From assembly GCA_951406725.2 (NCBI GenBank), contig OX597827.1:44392001-44456000 (forward strand): a stretch of 64,000 nt of DNA, written 5' to 3'. The notes beneath the pieces were generated by a model. That model searched no databases, had not been told where the DNA came from, and was given only the letters and a program-made list of their open reading frames with translations. Source of the DNA: Octopus vulgaris (Eukaryota). The translations under genes were made by a program, and so were the position numbers. Positions within the stretch are counted from its first letter, which is position 1. Every line of letters begins with the position of its first letter. Shown here piece after piece: positions 11,071-52,500 of this stretch.

Positions 11071-11256
<186 letters not shown>

Positions 11257-13272: not shown

Positions 13273-13599
<327 letters not shown>

Positions 13600-15712: not shown

Positions 15713-16111
<399 letters not shown>

Positions 16112-21122: not shown

Positions 21123-21320
<198 letters not shown>

Positions 21321-29175: not shown

Positions 29176-29400
<225 letters not shown>

Positions 29401-40489: not shown

Positions 40490-40540
40490 CCATATTATAT
40501 GGCATTATGGACTTTCCGTTCAATGAGGCGTTCCAGTTAT
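40490..40540 (-). CDS. CtBP: Putative CtBP N-terminal microexon B, (x)NWNASLNGKSIMPYNM
   Basis: 51 nt, symmetric phase 1-1, open frame; ttgaactttttag|...ATGG|gtatgt; paralogous to 49488-49526; phase fits the exon starting at 29375. Confidence 0.75.
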
Positions 40541-42016
40541 CTAAAAAGTTCAAGCAAAAGCAAATATGTACCCATTTCTCTTAAACCAATAATCAAATAT
40601 ATTTTTAAAACAGTTTCATTGTTTTTTTTCTGTCAGTTTGTATTATTATCATTTATTTATTTATGCAATACTTTGTGAAGAAACCACACCGGAGACTGAC
40701 ATAACACAACCAGGAAAAGAGGGGGAAAAGCGAAAAAAAAAAAAAAAAAATTTACACCGGAAACAAGAGTGCAAACAAGTATGCATTCAAAGATAATTTC
40801 TTACAACGGTATTCCAGTTAGGTTTGTTGTTGTTGCTGTTCTCTTGTTGCTTGCAATTTACACAATAAATGTAAATATTTTATACAATAAATAAACTAAA
40901 TATTTAGTTTATTTACACAAATGAAATATGTCTATGACAAGGCCCAAGTTGTTACATCTAGCCATATACGAATGCAATAAAATTTGAACACACACAGACA
41001 CACACTGTAGGCCACATTGTTTTCTTTTAAATTATTGTAGATTCCTATGATAAATATCACATCAATGGATTAGTAAGTGTATTTGGCTTCTGATTGCAAG
41101 GTCATGAGTTCAATTCCTAGTAACGCATTGTATCCATGAGCAGAACACTTTTATTTTGTGTTGCTCCAGTCCACTAAGCCAGTAAAAGCAAGTAGTACCA
41201 GTATTTCCAAAAGGCCAAACTGTCACATTCTATGTCACACTGAATCTCTCTGAGAACTACTCTAAGGGTATGCGTGTCTGTGGAGGGCTTAGCCACTCGC
41301 ACGTTAATTTCATGAGCAGACTGTTCCATTGATCGGATCAACTGGAACCCTCATCGTTGAAACCAAACAAGTGCATCTGCACAGTTTCTGACAACCAAGT
41401 TTCACTGACACGGTTTTGACCAGCCTGAGGCTACGGAGAAAATGGTTAAAGTGTCACCATCCAGTGCAATGGAATCCAGAACAAAGTATTGCAAAGCACA
41501 TGACCATACTTATACTCAAAAACTAAGTGACACCATCGCTTCAGTCCAGCTATGAAGGCCAAAAAATAACAGAAACTTGCCACAAGGCAAGTGCATAGCA
41601 GGGGAGATCTTCAGAGGAAGAACTCCCATCTGACAAGTGTTTTGGCCCTTATAGCTGACACTCTATAAGAACAAGGCCCACCCAGGTCATGACTCCTAAG
41701 TGTCCTCCTGCTGCTTTCTAAAATCCTGTCTCCAGCAGGATTTGAACCTGGATCATTTTTTTGTTCTTAGCTCTATGTTTCAGCCCACTAGACCACTCTG
41801 ACTGACAAAGGAACCAGTATTCCCCTTCTTTCTATTCTTGTAAATAACCAATGGAAATTCATAACTAAGTCCGTTGGTCATTCCCCTTCATCTATATCCA
41901 CATTGAGGTCTTTTCAGCAACATCAGGCAGAGAAAAAGGTGAGGGCAAAACAGATCACCCACACACACCTGTATAGAACTTTGTGTTTAGAATATCCCAA
42001 TAAAAAAAAGGAAAAG

Positions 42017-42067
<51 letters not shown>

Positions 42068-42665
42068 ATATTTCAGACTGGATAGTATCAATAACTTTGA
42101 AATTGGTAAACAGAAATAAATTAAGGCACAGGTGTTATGATGTGTGTGTAGGAGAATTTTCATTAAAAATATTAGAGAATATGGATATTTTGCAATATAT
42201 TTTTTATTACTAAGAGGCACAGAAGGAGAGAGAGAGAGTATGAGATACATAATTGCACAAAGAATAGAGAGAGAGAGAGATAAGACAGAAATACAAAAAG
42301 ATAGAGATGTGAAGGTGCATGTGTGGGTATAAATGTAGAGAGAGAGGGTGGCGGGGGAGAGAAACAGATAACTGGGAGGTACTTTCAGACCCCAATATTA
42401 GAGAGAGGTGGGGGGAGTAAACATCGAAGAAGCCTTAAGGAAACAAGACCAGGTGTTTTGGGAAAAAAAATTTTAATTGTATAACCAGCCTTAAAAAACA
42501 GTGCAGCACATTGCTAAAATGCAGCAGAAGATGCACTAAACACTATCTGTTGCGATTAAAAGAACTATATTCCAATTAAGCTGTTTTTCAAGATTATATC
42601 TTCAGCTCAAAACTGCAAAACTCAATTATTTTATAAAAAGATTAAAATATAAAAAGAAGCAACTG

Positions 42666-42670
42666 TAGTA

Positions 42671-42726
<56 letters not shown>

Positions 42727-42727
42727 T
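42666..42727. repeat. (TAA)n microsatellite
   Basis: Direct inspection. Confidence 0.97.
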
Positions 42728-45700
42728 GTAAAAAATTCATTATTTCTTAATTAATTTCCAATGATCTGGTTATCAATATGAGTTTATTACAAAATAGAAC
42801 ACTCTGAGAGAACAGACAACAACTTTTTTTTTTTATCAAATATTTGAAGCTTTTGAAATTTAATTATCTATTAACTATCTTTGGCTTTCATTAAAAAATT
42901 AAATAAATAAATGAACAACAGTAATAATAACATAAAAAGGTAATAATATTTTTGGCTGTCTCTGTTCAAAACAGCAACAACACCTGGTACAGAAGATGGT
43001 AAAACTTTAATTGGAAATTAATAGAAATTAAAAAATTTAAGTATTCACTTGAGTGTGTTTGCGTGTACATAGATGTTTGTGTACAGACACACATGTATAT
43101 ATGTGTGAATGTATGTATGGCCTCAGCTGAAATTTTCATAACAGCCTGCAGAAAATTTCACAACTAGCAAAAATCTTAGTAGTTTATATATATATATATA
43201 ATGTAAATGAGATAATTTACGGACATAATTTCAATTTTGTTTTGAATGAAGATTATAACAGGAAGTAAAATTTATACTTGGAGATAATCTGGAGAAATAT
43301 TTCTGGAAATTCTTAAAATTTCAGAATTACTCAGAAATTACATAACAAAACAAGAAAATTAGAAAGAAATTGAATAAAATGTTATTAAGAGGCAAGGATA
43401 GGATACTATTTAATTTATTATTTCATTTCATTCCAAAACCAAAGTTAAGTTTCTACAAAGTTTAGTTCCTTAAGTGAATTTAATTGATGGGCTCACATAC
43501 ACCTACGAGGACTCGTACATGTTTAAGGGGATTGGCAATGGGACTGCATGGCATTCATCCATTTGCCATATTAAAGAATTGTAGAAATTGGATGGCCAAG
43601 ACCAGACGTAACCCTCTATTTTCCAGTACACATAGAACAATATCTGAAGTAGGCATAACAGAGAAGGAAATACATTCTGGAAATGAAATAAAATAATTTA
43701 TTTGATTTCACTAAGATTTGAACTCCTTATTTTGAAACTGTAAGTGGTCAGCTGTCTTGGTATTTATATAAACACCTTTCATGATGAGGAGGGTGATGAT
43801 GGTGCTCTTGAGAATTTCCTTTTTGACTGTTCAAAAGGGCCCTAATAACATTTTCATGGAAATGCTATTTATGTCTTTCCTCTCTAAAACATATGAGTAC
43901 CATATTTGAAGGCATATAAGATACACCTTTCCTCTCCTAAAACGTCTCAAAATATAAGCCGCGCCCCACCACAACTCAATATGCAAAGCTGGGTTTCCCA
44001 TAAGAGTTAATGCACAAAAGACATTCTTTTCTAGAATATGTGCTGGGGTGAGTCAAATATGCCTATGAATATTTTATACTGCCAAATACAGTTAAGTATA
44101 TGAGCACACATTAGCATACATACATTTGTGTTTACGGGTGCAGTTTTATGAAGGGAGATAGTGATATGAAACAGCGAGCTAACTCCTTTTCTCAGAGCAT
44201 AACTCTTTTAAGACTGAAACACAAATTTACCATGATCAATACTCTTGGCTGAACTTTTGACTTATACCACTCCCTGGAATTGCTGGCCTTGTGCCAAAAT
44301 GTGAAACCAATATTTATATCATTCGTTAGTATGTTAACAGATTTATTTATTATAAGTAAACTGAGCCAATTATAGAGGCTCTAGTTAGCTGCTTCATCTG
44401 TTACAGATAGCAACCAAATACTGCTATTGATCCAAAGCAACACACCACCAACATCATTATCAATGTGTTTGATCTCTATGCTGAGATGGGTTGAGCAGAT
44501 TTAATGTCAACTTTCTGTGGCTGTCTCTTATGATGCCTAGCAATACATGCATCCATCCTAAATGCCAGAATAGACATATGCAATATAAATATTCTAAGAA
44601 TTGGAATGGGAAATGCTATACAATAAAAAAAAATTGTAGTCAAAAACACTGTACAGGAACAGTTTAATCTACAGCAATGAAGAACTGTACCAAAATCCTT
44701 GCCACCACCTCCGTTATGGACCATCTATCATTAACTGAGAATTGGAATGAGGTAGGTAAAGAAATCTGCTCATGGAATTAGGAGAAAGGAAGGAGACTGA
44801 CAATCAGAAGGTTCCTTTTTCATGTTGCTGATGTTATTACAAGAATTTTCACACCAAAACTATTTACAAATTTCTGCTTGTATAAATATAAGCAAGCAGA
44901 CACTCAGTTATGTTATCTGATTGTACGTCCTCCTTTATCATCACCATCATCATTCCTGCATCTTGTTGCAGCTAATTGTTCTCTTGTCCAAAGACTTTCA
45001 TCATTCTATGGTGGCTGGGTAGTGTGGTATAGCAGTAAGTTCTTGGGGGAAAGAAAGAAAGAGACAGACAGAGAAAGGGACTGGTTCATGTAGTAGAGGA
45101 AAGAATCTAATTTCAAATGTCACAGCTTCCAAGTATATATAAAAATTGAAAGAAACTAAGAAAAATCAGTGAAGTGGCTAATGGTAGGAAGAAAAGGGAA
45201 GAAAATTGCCTGGGTGTGTTTCTGTGAAAGAGTGAGTGGGTGTATGGGAGAGCAGGTTTGTTAGTGTCTTGTCATCTGTCTGTATGCTCTACATGTGGAA
45301 GCTGAACCCCACTGTGTTTTCATGAGTGTTTGTATCTGCAAGAGCAGATCTTTTGGTATGAGTATGTGATGTTCAAGTGTGTATGAGAACCTGTGTTTGA
45401 GTGTTGGCTTTAAAATGTGATGGTGGGCGATGCATAGTAGTGAAACGCATGTGTAAGACATGATAAATTTAGATCAGTAAAAAGAACTTACAGTGATTCA
45501 CTAATACATTACATACAAAGTGGTTGAAAATAAAAGGGGAGAAAAAAAAAACGAGTGGTGAAGGTAAAAAGCAACTGAAAAGCAATTTTTGCAGCTTATT
45601 TTATATACAAAGGATTCAAAAGACGTCACTGATCACTTTTTTTCTTTCTTTTTTTTTTTTTTGGTTTCTAAAACTACTACAGAAATTGAGGTAGGAAAAA

Positions 45701-47730
45701 TTTTGCTTGCAATTGACAAAAATGACGACCACACAAATTGAAAATCATTTTTTTTTTTCTAACCACATCAAGCATTGTCACAAAAGATACAATATCAATT
45801 ACAAAAATTGCTAAAAACCAAAGGCTTGATGGCAGGGGATAGAAAAGATCAACCCCTCCTTATGAGAGGAGCAGTTGAATAAAGAGGGTGGTAAGTCAGG
45901 TTTGTAATTCAAAAGGAGTATCTTTAATATTAAAGTTTGCATTTCAAAACTGACAGTTCAGTTTTGTTTTTAAATTTCTTTAATTAATGTTTTAATTAAT
46001 TATGGAATTGTCCAAGTGGGTTGGTTTTTTTTAAACTTCAACACATTAAAAGAAGTAAAGAAATATTTCCCAATTAAATTTTCTCAACTAACTGACATAT
46101 TTATATCATGCATTTGATGAACCATAGTCTCACTGGTTAAAAACTTCCAACAGGATAATCACAGATTCACTGCATTTCCAGTGACAAGAGTGTGTCTTTG
46201 CAACGCGGGCAAAGTTAAACACCAAAAATGCACCATTGCATCAGTTTCCTCACTGGTAATGTGTACATGTTTTACCAATAAATATCAGTAAAAGAACACA
46301 CATATATACATACAAGAAGGAAGGTGACAGTGGCTTCGAAGTTTTTGCAAGCTAGCATTCGTTAGACAATCTAAAACTGTGAAGCCATGAAGTTAGCGAC
46401 TCTTCTTGTAAAAGTCTAAAAGTATACTCTACAAAAAAAAAAAAAAAAAAAGTACTGAATAATTTTTCAGCTTAATGTTAAATTTTTAGTATAACTTCAT
46501 ATCAAAACAAACAATATATATAAATGCGCATGAGCATGTATATATTATATATGGGGAGCTTCCTCATAGTTTGCGCCTGGTATTGAGCATTATTTTCTGT
46601 GCATTCACTTGCTTTTATATGAAAAACCTGAACAGTATTAGATGTAATAGTTATGTTACAGTATCCTTGTTATCAAAGTCTATATTTGTCAGTTCAAAAA
46701 TTACAGCAGATCTGTAAATGCTTTGGCAAAATTCAACAGAATGATGTTGATGTAAAATTTTAAAATTAACCTCCTCAACATTTTATTACACAAATAGAAT
46801 CAACGCTTTTCAACTTTGCCTAATTAGATGCGTCTCTCATTAGTTAATTAATTAATGCCATTTGCTTCCGGATAGTACCACATTCTCTCTAAGCTATATA
46901 CGAAGTGGCTGATTCAAGAGGGTAGTGATGCAAATGCAAATTAATGCTAATTAGTTGTACAGTGATCCTGCTGCTTACAGAGATAAGCTGTAGCTTTGAT
47001 GGCACTTGTGTTATAAAACAGAACTTGGTAGAGTGGATGAAACACGAGTTAAGATATCCTGGCCCATGATATCAATACCATATGGACTCAAGCCAACAAG
47101 GAATCCTCTACACAGTCACTCAACCAACATGAAATAAAAGCTAATTCTTCCTCAAATTACACCAGACTCTCTTATATAGGAATGACACAACGGATAACAT
47201 ATTCCAACGCCTGAAAATCAAAACAGGAGGATGGTGGCCACAGCTTGAAAAGCTTTGATGAAGGCCTTCTAGATTTGGTTTTTTTATAAAATTTTTTGCA
47301 GGGTCTGTAAAAAAGGGCAGTACACAAGGCCTTCATAGGCTCTCAGAGATTAGCACAAGCCCCCTCTCCACCACGTTCACCATATACAGTGACAGAATGG
47401 GTGATGAAATCAGGGAGAAAGGAGGCAAAAACTGCCTCAGTTGAGGTGGCATGAAACTAGTTCCAAGGCACAGAAACCATTACTATAGGCAGAAAAAAAA
47501 ATCAGAAAGATTGACAATACAGTGGGCTAAATGCTGGAACATGTCTGTGAGAGACTTTATACTAGTCCGTTGAGTAGACATTCTTTGGATGAAGTCTACA
47601 ATGTGCAGCAGCAGCAGCACTTTTACAAGCTTGAGGCCTAAACAATTATACAATGGACAAGGTCAAGTATGAGAGAGTTTAGTCTAGTGCAGTTATTACT
47701 GTTAGTGAGTCACTTCTCCCAATACAACCA

Positions 47731-47945
47731 ATGATTTTAATTTCAAAATTAATTATTGGAGGCAAGGGACCTAATGGTAGACCACAAGCAAAATGGTTAA
47801 ATTATATCCACAGACACAGTTGGTCACAATTAGGAATCCAGCAGCATGATGTAATGACAGTTGCTTTTGATAGAACCCCACTATGGAGGTGTCACTTGAG
47901 GATTCTATACCCACAACCCTCCCAGGAATAGCAGGCAGTGAAAAT
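47731..47945 (+). mobile_element. Degenerate RTE-like LINE 3' fragment
   Basis: IGGKGPNGRPQAKWLNYI...AFDR..WR resembles G.R.RGRP...W.D.I...A.DR..WR. Confidence 0.65.
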
Positions 47946-48014
47946 GGAACAACAGATTATTAACTGCTATTCATTATCATATATTTCTACTTAGTATTTT
48001 ATCATTCTTCCTGC

Positions 48015-48470
48015 TATTATTATCAAAGCAGAATTGTTAGTACATTGAGTAAAACGCTTAGTGATATTTCTTCTGATTCTCTAGATTCTGAGTTCAAATC
48101 TCACCAAGGTCAACTTTGCCTTTCATCCTTTCAGGTTCAATAAAACGAGTACTAGTCAAGAGCTGGGGGTCAATGTAATTGATTTGTCTCCTCCTCTCAA
48201 AATTACTGGCACTGCACCAAAATTACAAAGAATTATTATCAATATTTTATTATTAAGATGGCTAGCTGGCAGAATTGTTATTGTATTGGGCAATATATTT
48301 TGCAGTATTTCCTCCTGCTCTTTACATTCACTGTTCAAATCTTGCCATGGTTAACTTTGCCTTTCAACCTTGCAGGGTTGATGAAATAAAGACCAATGTA
48401 ATCGACCAGCTCCTACCCCTCAAAATTGCTGGTCTTGTGCAAAAATCTGAAATAATAATAATAATGATGA
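48015..48470 (+). mobile_element. Two tandem SINE family 1 copies
   Basis: Core CTTTGCCTTTCA occurs twice, with (TAA) tails. Confidence 0.8.
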
Positions 48471-49487
48471 TGATAATGGACTCTGCCACTGAAGATGACT
48501 TTTGCTGATCGACCTGCACAAAGGATTTGTTTATAGTGATCAAATGTAAGTGCTGTACATTACCTCACTCCTTCCATCAAATCAATGTTACCTGAACAGG
48601 TGCATGGTGTGTCAGGTGTCAGAGTGATTGCAGAGCATTGTGAAATGAAATGTCTTGCTCAAGAACATAATGCACCACCCAGTCTAGGAAATGAAACAAT
48701 GATCTTGCGATCATAAGCACAACACCTTAACCACAAGGCCATGCATCCTACTGGTTAGCATGTTATAATAATGATAATGGTGATGATAATTATTATTATT
48801 GTTATTATTACTATTATTACCAGTTTCACTGGACTGTAGCTGTGCTGAGGCACTACCTTTAGCAATACATTCGATTGCTTCAACCTCAAAATGAATCCAA
48901 ACTGTACCTGAACAGAGAATGTAAAAGTATGCATCCAAACAGCATGAAGTGTGTAGTGCAATGGCTCTACAAATTGTATTAGTCCTTTGGGGCTTTTGAT
49001 TAGATTCCTTTACATGAATATGTCAATGCAGTTAACATTTGTCTTCACATCTCTTAATTCTCACTAGGTCTTGTACAGTTAGCATCAAACATCAGAGCCA
49101 AAATGGTGTCTGAAACTGGTTCAAACAACCACAAAGGACTTCTCTCTCTCTCTCTCTCTCTTTTTTTTTTTTTAAATTTATATTTAAACTGTTTAACAAT
49201 CAAATTAAGAATAGTAATTTTTTATGTTTCAATTTAACAAGTATTTAAAGCTAAGCCTTCTAAATAAATAGAAAAAAAAGACAAAAATAAAGGGAGACAA
49301 ACTAAGAGGCTCTAATATCTAATATAAAAAGAAATACAGTGACTTACAAAGCCACAAATAATTTTATACAGGAAATAAAAATTCAAATAAATAAATAAAT
49401 AACACAGTACAGTTACAAATTAATATCAACACACGAAGAAAAGAGCACTGACAGACGATGGAGAATTATAGATAACAAACAACATAC

Positions 49488-49526
49488 CCATCACTGACTT
49501 CCCATTTATTGACGATGTCCAGTTTT
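49488..49526 (-). CDS. CtBP: Putative CtBP N-terminal microexon A, (x)NWTSSINGKSVM
   Basis: 39 nt, symmetric phase 1-1, open frame; tcctccttttcaaccttttag|...ATGG|gtatgt; 8 of 12 aligned residues identical to microexon B, with synonymous differences. Confidence 0.75.
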
Positions 49527-52500
49527 CTAAAAGGTTGAAAAGGAGGAAATGACAGTAACAGACTTGACAATATTTTTATAGTGATGATGATCTCAGACAG
49601 GGTTGTTATTTTTTTATAGTTTTTATTTTTATCCCTTTTTTTAAAAAAAAGTTAGTAAATGCTTTCCATCATCTTCCAACACCCCCCCCTTTTTAAAATT
49701 TTTTTTTACAGCAGCAGTCACAAAGAAATAGAAAATAACACCACATACATTTTTTTTTTTTTAAATATACAGTAAAATAAGACGCAAAGTAATGAAAATA
49801 GAGATCAGATTTATATAAGAAATTTTTAAACCTTCATCTATTGCGCTAAACCTACAACAGGGAACAATCTCCTATCCAGTAATTTGCAATTCTGCTCCAT
49901 CTCTTTAAAGAATGTTTACATGCATGTGTGTAAGAGACCAGAGAGATAGATAAAAAGACAGGTGTATGCGACTTTCACTTATTTACGATGGAATGTGTGC
50001 ATGTACACATGTGACAGGTATATTCCTACCTATACAGCTACCCACCAAAATAATTCTTGGTGTAAATCTCAGTTATATTTTTGTTGTGTCTTGGGAAGAG
50101 TCATTACGCCAATTTAATCTGCACATTAAAAAAACAGTTGATTAACCAATTTAAGAATAAAGAACTGAAACTGAACCTGTGCATGTGTTGTTATTATTAC
50201 TGACACAATGAATCCCCCAAGGCAATAAAATTTATTTCAACACATGAATTCACATCAAGAATCTTGCAAACCAAATACAACAATGAGGTCTGAGTTATGT
50301 TTTTTTTTTTTCTTTTCTTTTGCCTTTAAAACATAAGTTTGAACTATCAAAGAAACTCAAAACTGATAAGTTTTCTGAAAATCAATGCTTCTTTTTTTGT
50401 TTTCTTATATTTACAACAGTCTCCATCAAGAAATGACTTCAATGCAGATACTCCTCAATCTGCCAGCAATGGCAGCCAAAATCTCTCTCAAAACACACAC
50501 AAAGAAATGCGAGACAATGTAACTTCTAGATACACTGCTTGACAAAAACACGGGATCTTCAGAGGATTTAGTTGGAGCAAACCAATGACAACAAACAAGA
50601 ACATTTGCAAATATAACCAACCCATAAGACTTTCATTGTTCTCTGGTCATTGTTCAATGAAAAAACATCCTAAAAAACTATCGATTGACTATCTCTAAGG
50701 TGCTTCATATATATATATATATAAAAAAGAAAAAAAAACTATTGATTAATTGATTATCTGTAAGGTGCATCATAAAGAAAAATAGAATTTTTCACCCAGT
50801 ATTCTAGGTCTTTGTTTACTTAGTCAAAACATGATTGTTAATTTGACAAAACATGGCAGTATTGCCCACGTCAACCTGTAGCACTTGCTTCCATCAGGAG
50901 ACAAAAAAAATAAAAAATGGTGGGAAAACAATATCTAAAAATCAATGATTTTTCTATTCTCTACCCTCAAACTGAAATACATATTCAACCTTGACAAATA
51001 TACATTTGAACATTTTATATTTCAATAGATGTTCTGTTCATTTCCCAAGAGACAAATTCACTGAGTTATTTGTCAGTGTATCTCATAAGAAAGAGACAAA
51101 CAAGATGTGCACGTGTATGTGTGCATGTGCATCGTCTCTGTCACCATCCTTTTAATGTCCACTTATCATCCATCCTCACATGGGCCAAGATAAGATATTT
51201 TCAGGCAGATTTCCTACAGCCAGAAGCCCTTCCTGTCACTAACCATCACTTATTTCCAAGTAAGATATTTCCCTATGGCCAGATATATTTACATAAAAGA
51301 TTGGAAATGAAGGCCACTACTTACATGATAGTAACAATCATATAAAACTACCACCCAGTGTCAAGGCAAAGAGACAGTAACACACACACACACACACGAC
51401 ACATTTCTTTAAAGCCACACCTGCGCCTTACATAAAATACACATACACATACACAAGTAAAGCAAAATTAAATATTTCTTTCTCAATACTGAATGAAATA
51501 GAAAAACATTTGCACAACTTTACAAATATATCTATATAAGCTTGTCCGACAGACTTTAAAAAATTTGAAAACCACAATTGACACTCTCAAGAGATAAAGG
51601 AATTATTAATGACTGTCTCTATATTTTAGGTATGAAAGAAAGATTAGGAGGCCATCATACTTTTTCACAAAGGCTATAAGGTAACAAGTTGTCAAACAAG
51701 TGAAACTGAGAGCAACTGTGGGTTGAAACCATATCAAAAATTTACCTCATCATAAATGCAGCTCTTGTATTATAGCATTGATCAAATATGATATTGATTT
51801 CTTTTCATAAATTGAGAATTTTCTTTCAGAAAAGCCTTTTGTGCATGTATGCATGTGTGTGCTCACTGATCGTTACTTTATCAATTCCTCAAAGGTAAAA
51901 ATGATCTCAGAAAGATTTTGACGTAACAGCAAGTGAAACATCCCTACCACTCCTATCAGTTTAATATTACACTAACAGGCAGCAATTACACATGAATACA
52001 CATGTACAAACAAACAGGTCATGTTAACCATTTTGTTACGTTTCTAACACACTTACACACAGCCTGTGAGTTTTAATTTATTTGAAATGGAATATTTCGA
52101 GGATTTGTTAAAATAGCTGTCACGCTTGCTTCTATTTATTAATACACAAAGCTAGAGTTTAGAATACAGCTTATAAAAAAAATTCTTCCATGAAACTATA
52201 AAGAAACAGTTACTCACTAAAGTACTGAAGAGTCAAGTTATCATCTTCTGATAATGAGATTGTTAACAAGATTTTAATTTAAATATATAAATAGTTGACT
52301 GGCAAAATTTGTACAGCATCAGGCAGGCAAAATATCTCATGGTTACATTCTTTTTGTGTTCAGTTAAAATCCAACCCACCTCAGTGTTGCTTTTCATCCT
52401 TCTGATGTTGATAATATAAAAACCAGTTCACAAGAACTGGAGTTAAAACATAATTAACTACACCCTTGAAAGTGGTGCCCAATTATGGTTATGGTCCACT

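Follow-up and report, generated by a model that had tools for sequence, protein, structure and literature searches.

CtBP acts both as a nuclear co-repressor and as a cytoplasmic membrane factor, and vertebrates set the balance between the two roles with N-terminal isoforms; do invertebrates regulate CtBP localisation by splicing? A pair of short exons, A and B, in the CtBP gene of Octopus vulgaris offers a direct test of this question. Both lie on the minus strand of a 64,000-nt stretch of the genome (assembly GCA_951406725.2, contig OX597827.1, positions 44,392,001 to 44,456,000), hereafter the window. We tentatively favour the reading that A and B insert no, one (B) or two (A and B) copies of a W-x2-S-[IL]-N-G-K-S motif between a start exon with a basic KRAR motif and the CtBP core, and that the methionine at the end of B is likely a second start, giving a short CtBP that lacks the basic motif and is predicted to be more cytoplasmic.

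A duplicated exon pair ahead of the CtBP core

The N-terminal region is laid out as follows (window positions; the start exon, which lies outside the window, is given in genome coordinates):

G000:C14:44459441, 3.4 kb past the high end of the window: start exon U, coding for MDPGNKRARFDKP with the basic KRAR motif
49527..49540, minus strand: acceptor of exon A, homologous to the exon B acceptor and identical to it at 11 of 14 positions
49488..49526, minus strand: exon A, 39 nt, phase 1-1 cassette, coding for (E)NWTSSINGKSVM
40541..40554, minus strand: acceptor of exon B, with TGC twice upstream, at -22 and -16
40490..40540, minus strand: exon B, 51 nt, phase 1-1 cassette, coding for (D)NWNASLNGKSIMPYNM
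29218..29375, minus strand: first CtBP core exon, with a phase-1 acceptor at 29375 and containing ...EIHEK

The host gene is CtBP. PF00389 and PF02826 are above the Pfam cut-off in the octopus and cuttlefish records P0123, P0122 and P0003, which contain the D-2-hydroxyacid dehydrogenase substrate- and NAD-binding domains, and all 15 PDB relatives at E<=1e-50 are named CtBP, the closest solved structures being those of CtBP1/CtBP2. The A/B region belongs to a tail outside these domains, which begin at residue 69. Start exon U is preceded by an in-frame stop and by 300 nt without an ATG, and ends in phase 1 as CCAG/gtaaga at G000:C14:44459402; the introns that follow measure 17,875 nt (U to A), 8,947 nt (A to B) and 11,114 nt (B to core). 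Exons A and B have AG...GT borders and preserve the frame, their lengths being multiples of three. A first-pass annotation, made from the sequence letters, had proposed the pair, and its coordinates (A at 49526-49488, B at 40540-40490), sequences, phases and phase-1 core acceptor proved exact.

The peptides NWTSSINGKSVM and NWNASLNGKSIMPYNM share 8 of 12 residues. In a scan of both strands of the window with exon A plus its flanks, exon B matched at 35 of 50 positions; the runner-up reached 28, against a background mean of 13.5 (sd 3.1). A degenerate A/B pattern searched in the 2.8 Gb genome matched exons A and B only, and its reversed control gave no match. Differences between the two exons fall on codon positions 1, 2 and 3 in the ratio 3/1/7, and the proportion of synonymous differences (pS 0.77) exceeds that of nonsynonymous ones (pN 0.19; Fisher p = 0.008, from rounded counts), in agreement with the protein-level selection suggested in the first-pass annotation. 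The likeness is limited to the exons and their splice sites (11/14 at -14..-1 and 7/7 at +1..+7), and identity elsewhere is at background level (8/26, 20/60, 10/33 and 24/60). The bias to third positions and the end of similarity at the splice sites point to an old duplication maintained by selection on the protein.

The 38 kb intron span yields 20,910 pairs of pseudo-exon candidates, of which a single one scored higher than A/B (10/12); it was rejected as a recent intronic DNA repeat, its identity extending far past any exon. No third A/B-like copy was found in the window scan, the genome pattern search or the pseudo-exon candidates, and of eight further candidates that cleared a crude splice filter, none occurs in any protein record. 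The exon architecture is almost certainly as described here, with A and B real duplicated exons.

A looser upper limit for microexon length is 51 nt. The strict range given in published abstracts is 3-27 nt. The first-pass description of A and B as frame-preserving microexons stands as to frame; at 39 and 51 nt, the exons are microexons in the loose sense alone.

Isoforms, conservation and distribution in coleoids

Exon use was tallied in 10 full-length coleoid CtBP records from two protein clusters. Three contain A and B: P0123 and P0124 from Octopus vulgaris and P0122 from the cuttlefish Acanthosepion pharaonis, the single Logan-sourced record with both exons. Five contain B only, namely P0121 (14 contigs), P0125 and the Logan-only P0004, P0126 and P0127, and two O. 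bimaculoides RefSeq records (P0003, P0128) contain neither. Exon B is thus present in 8 of the 10 records, and A occurs alone in none. By contigs represented the tally is 21 with B only, 4 with A and B and 2 with neither, which are not expression levels. Since P0004, P0121, P0126 and P0127 span many genomic introns, these Logan-sourced records are spliced transcripts that include B only. Every junction residue in the coleoid records is the one predicted from phase: E at U/A, D at A/B and U/B, and A at B/core and U/core. The exons already appear in public annotations (CAI9732931.1, CAI9732932.1, CAE1320748.1, CAE1320749.1).

Octopus and cuttlefish agree at 11/13 residues of U, 11/13 of A, 16/17 of B and 344/347 of the core, and the residues that distinguish A from B are retained between them. 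Both peptides are, by this comparison, under selection, and since A and B are conserved in both lineages the duplication appears to be older than the octopus-cuttlefish split. That split dates to about 270 million years ago. Conservation in a related lineage, which the first-pass annotation had named as a test of its proposal, is therefore found. The shared splice sites that it described are likewise homologous, but the common ATGG end before the donor has not been conserved: cuttlefish exon A ends in SLL, and the methionine of octopus A is not kept there.

The W-x2-S-[IL]-NGKS motif was found in 8 of 227 fetched CtBP-anchor proteins, all in the coleoid cluster. The matches considered were the best 120 of 1,766, and the proteins fetched include no record named Nautilus. 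Searching the N-terminal region against proteins of 217-693 aa gave two candidates, of which cluster P0004 was the sole match; shorter proteins gave none. A HMMER scan of 1.84 billion representatives returned three matches, all repetitive unrelated proteins, which were discarded; an Atlas feature search for the motif gave no usable match, and the A/B DNA pattern had no match in metagenome contigs. All of these searches have limited sensitivity for short motifs. As far as searched, the exon pair is restricted to coleoids.

The choice of junction also changes the context of the last lysine of U, which reads K-P-E before A, K-P-D before B and K-P-A when both are skipped. K-x-E/D is a SUMO-like consensus. 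Such a site arises here only on inclusion of A or B, and it has no hydrophobic residue at -1.

The terminal methionine of exon B and competing explanations

The first-pass annotation did not remark that exon B places a methionine at the CtBP1-S start position, where it would replace the methionine present in all 32 other molluscs compared:

40491..40493, minus strand: terminal in-frame ATG of exon B, candidate second start codon, in the context AAT ATG G

With A at -3 and G at +4 this context is strong, and that of the first ATG (CAC ATG G) is weaker, having C at -3. The position suits a CtBP-S-type second start, the methionine being in frame, in good context, and placed after the basic motif but ahead of the core. 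In alignment, it coincides with that of rat CtBP1-S/BARS (chain 1hku_A; a 12-residue stretch against MSGVRPPIMNGP), and in cuttlefish it is kept.

We compared CtBPs of 32 named non-cephalopod molluscs, picking for each species one named record whose N-terminus is complete; all 32 have a methionine at most five residues before [IV]RGP. The annotations of two snails, Biomphalaria (P0153) and Physella (P0180), include short forms starting at the pre-core methionine. Coleoid CtBPs have a methionine before the core in B-containing forms only. In proteins predicted from genomic read-through, [SATP]-V stands where spliced forms show M, and of 15 genomic contigs from animals, many of them probably from related hosts, 13 have a core exon that begins with TG directly after AG (AG/TG). 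As for the remaining two, the core exon of L036 begins with CT, and the other contig has no intron at this point. In one spliced contig (L010), the pre-core methionine is the first start after an in-frame stop. The pre-core methionine of other molluscs is thus likely encoded by a split A/TG codon. The octopus core exon begins with CT, and coleoids would for that reason have lost the pre-core methionine.

We hypothesize that the ancestral mollusc core exon began with TG and that the upstream exon completed the split codon, whereas in coleoids the core exon changed to CT and exon B then came to supply the methionine. Ribosomes leaking past the weaker first ATG could initiate at the exon B methionine; alternatively, transcripts that skip start exon U could do so. 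KRAR would act like the CtBP2 nuclear-retention sequence, and the repeated peptide may be a linear motif that sits in a flexible tail and adjusts how the long form is retained in the nucleus or binds partners. The short form, starting at the exon B methionine and devoid of KRAR, is predicted to be less strictly nuclear. Use of the second start in vivo is a possibility that we rate somewhat below even. An out-of-frame ATG lies inside exon A (49505-49503, minus strand; T at -3, G at +4) with no counterpart in B; on inclusion of A it could intercept scanning ribosomes, or it may be a chance occurrence.

Several points weigh against this proposal. Initiation at the exon B methionine is a prediction from sequence. 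The start codon is an insufficient explanation, because the whole peptide is conserved and exon A has no methionine in cuttlefish; the conservation of the peptides and of exon A needs a separate peptide function. The methionine conserved in other molluscs may in part reflect a fixed splice junction rather than selection for initiation, and the split codon of molluscs is deduced from read-through proteins, the DNA in which it is seen being that of the animal contigs, where L036 also starts with CT. The core exon has a further in-frame methionine downstream, in a weak context. The zero-copy form is known from O. bimaculoides gene models alone, with no transcript-derived record, and P0123 and P0124, whose exons match those of the window, may annotate the same DNA and are not independent support. 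Deletion of CtBP2 residues 4-14 moves that protein to the cytoplasm only in part (PMC1592084).

A bolder version of the second-start proposal, which we consider doubtful, is that coleoids moved the ancestral second start from a fixed junction into a duplicated cassette, so that splicing of B would gate a tail-less, cytoplasmic, BARS-like and possibly synaptic CtBP, and A would retune the nuclear form by contributing another copy of an undescribed motif. If true, the relocated start would let one gene do what vertebrates divide among CTBP1 and CTBP2 isoforms.

The exons could also matter through peptide dosage only, adding a short linear motif or spacer once or twice, with the methionine incidental; we regard this as possible. 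The motif might be a partner-binding site, or contribute an extra acetylatable G-K lysine beside the nuclear-retention motif. The eight shared residues are kept across copies and lineages, A's methionine apart, and together with the synonymous excess between A and B they favour such a role. N-terminal lysines of CtBP2 govern nuclear retention via p300 acetylation (PMC1592084); glycine at -1 is enriched at acetylation sites, but serine at +1, as in the G-K-S of the motif, is depleted there (PMC4364782). The searches made turned up no relative of the peptide beyond coleoid CtBP, and dosage leaves unexplained why exon B ends in a methionine and why 32/32 other named molluscs keep one at this position. 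Known motif types did not fit the peptide: an LC3-interacting region (LIR) was rejected for its wrong W-to-hydrophobic spacing and a bipartite nuclear localisation signal (NLS) for lack of a second basic cluster, and a PXDLS-like motif was considered and dropped.

A further possibility, which we hold open to a similar degree, concerns usage and would fit either mechanism: B may be effectively constitutive and A alone alternative, the true switch being between one and two copies, with the zero-copy form rare or an artefact of the O. bimaculoides gene models. The contig tally above and the presence of B in all five Logan-sourced records agree with this. Contig counts are not a measure of expression, however, and in four O. 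bimaculoides RefSeq accessions U runs straight into the core, the junction residue being as predicted.

Control by a neuron-specific microexon programme of the Srrm3/4 type (enhancer of microexons, eMIC) seems unlikely, the data on neural control of this type pointing neither way. The exons are short, frame-preserving and outside the Pfam domains, and the two TGC of exon B and the AG-free zones of 34-35 nt at both exons recall SRRM3/4 targets, 74-79% of which carry UGC (10.1101/2024.09.17.613571). Against this, A and B are longer than 3-27 nt and exon A has no TGC; moreover, a constitutive core exon shows three TGC and its AG-free zone is longer, which leaves the signal without discriminating value.

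The first-pass annotation had offered either no, one or two copies or mutually exclusive use. The former is what the records contain (none, B, or A with B). Mutual exclusion of a tandem pair, a substitution event that homologous neighbours of the same phase might suggest, is very improbable and, as an obligatory mode, contradicted: A and B occur together in 3/10 records, which represent two lineages and include a Logan-sourced one, A occurs alone in 0/10, and with exons 8,947 nt apart and each a multiple of three there is no steric or frame-based exclusion. Chance resemblance or decay into pseudo-exons, for which the 782 open YAG..GT candidates in the 38 kb span and the U1 matches of just 6/9 for each exon might speak, can be dismissed in view of the synonymous excess and of both peptides occurring in protein records across lineages with the predicted junction residues.

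Known systems and further features of the locus

Switching between N-terminal isoforms is known for CtBP, and the exon pair is a lineage-specific variant of it. In human CTBP2-L mRNA, initiation takes place at two AUGs, codons 1 and 26 (PMC2995425), and CtBP2 residues 4-14 promote nuclear accumulation (PMC1592084). As in coleoids, a short basic first coding exon lies far upstream of the core in CTBP2-L/CTBP2-S, and there an in-frame second AUG gives rise to a form that lacks the motif, as is proposed for exon B (PMC2995425, PMC1592084); however, codon 26 lies in the constitutive next exon, whereas the coleoid candidate is in a cassette exon, where splicing would decide. CTBP1-S arises through inclusion of an extra exon (PMC2995425). 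In CtBP1-S/BARS (exon 1-alpha, PDB 1hku), as with exon B, an extra pre-core exon supplies a new methionine, and the two methionines align; CtBP1-L has no basic motif, however, and A and B leave the upstream frame open, so that the long form gains a conserved peptide. The first-pass statement that N-termini affect CtBP localisation has a solid precedent in CtBP2, but the consequence of CtBP1-L versus CtBP1-S is unclear according to PMC2995425.

Tandem duplicated exon substitution (PMC9741552) likewise involves old, selected, homologous adjacent exons, but A and B are used additively (none, B, A and B) rather than exclusively, which gives them interest as duplicated exons. Compared with SRRM3/4 neural microexons, A and B share the form of short frame-preserving inserts outside domains but exceed 27 nt and have no discriminating UGC signal. 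The junction at which A and B are inserted is a recurrent insertion point. Like B, the bivalve inserts at this point are small, bear a methionine and lie between basic motif and core: Mytilus has an alternative insert (P0060/P0130 versus P0065/P0129), which has 13 residues as A does, and pectinids have SMYQ (P0045, P0133-P0137). These inserts lack W-x2-S-[IL]-NGKS and are single-copy; the likeness seen is one of position, and homology to A or B is no more than a possibility. In tubeworm CtBP records P0097 and P0192, an N-terminal extension of THAP type is attached at this junction.

No paper describing exons A and B was found in the literature searches, though the supplement of 10.64898/2026.09.05.749416, on O. 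bimaculoides tissue-specific exons, may list them; CtBP is not mentioned in the main-text excerpts of that paper or of 10.1101/2021.02.24.432780. In its excerpts, a bilaterian CtBP survey (10.1101/2022.06.23.497424) treats C-terminal and core variation, and N-terminal variation for jawed vertebrates only. A text search of the supplement text of its journal version (PMC9907507), where Octopus sinensis is a listed species, did not find 'NGKS'. The reach of the finding is modest, as it concerns one gene, exons already annotated and a predicted function.

An AlphaFold model of the form with A and B has a mean predicted local distance difference test score (pLDDT) of 52, with residues 1-111 below 50, a known folded domain included; it is too poor for use and uninformative on the CtBP tail, where the peptide might form an Asn-Gly hairpin. 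The window holds five CtBP core exons, the first of them given above, and the remaining gene lies past its low end. The other four, located by tblastn with approximate borders, are:

21144..21290, minus strand: CtBP core exon VLNEAV...AAGEL
15845..16057, minus strand: CtBP core exon GIAVCNVP...GIVGL
13476..13575, minus strand: CtBP core exon GRVGTAV...IEKAL
11077..11205, minus strand: CtBP core exon GITRVY...KQMRP

Within the introns, a direct repeat of at least 130 nt occurs at about 32240-32100 and 31988-31848 of the window, its copies 252 nt apart and more than 90% identical. Just past the low end of the window (L008, about 9440-9390, minus strand), a frame-preserving cassette of 17 residues, VKVNSQNPGEFGNGASK, falls in the NAD-binding domain; it is present in P0124 and P0128 and missing from P0123 and P0003, hence alternative in two Octopus species. 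At the downstream end of the gene (L008-L009), a short C-terminus ending in SSKQISFL arises by donor read-through and a long-tail exon follows about 6 kb further on, of which P0127 uses a second reading frame; this short/long pattern resembles the switch described for Drosophila CtBP.

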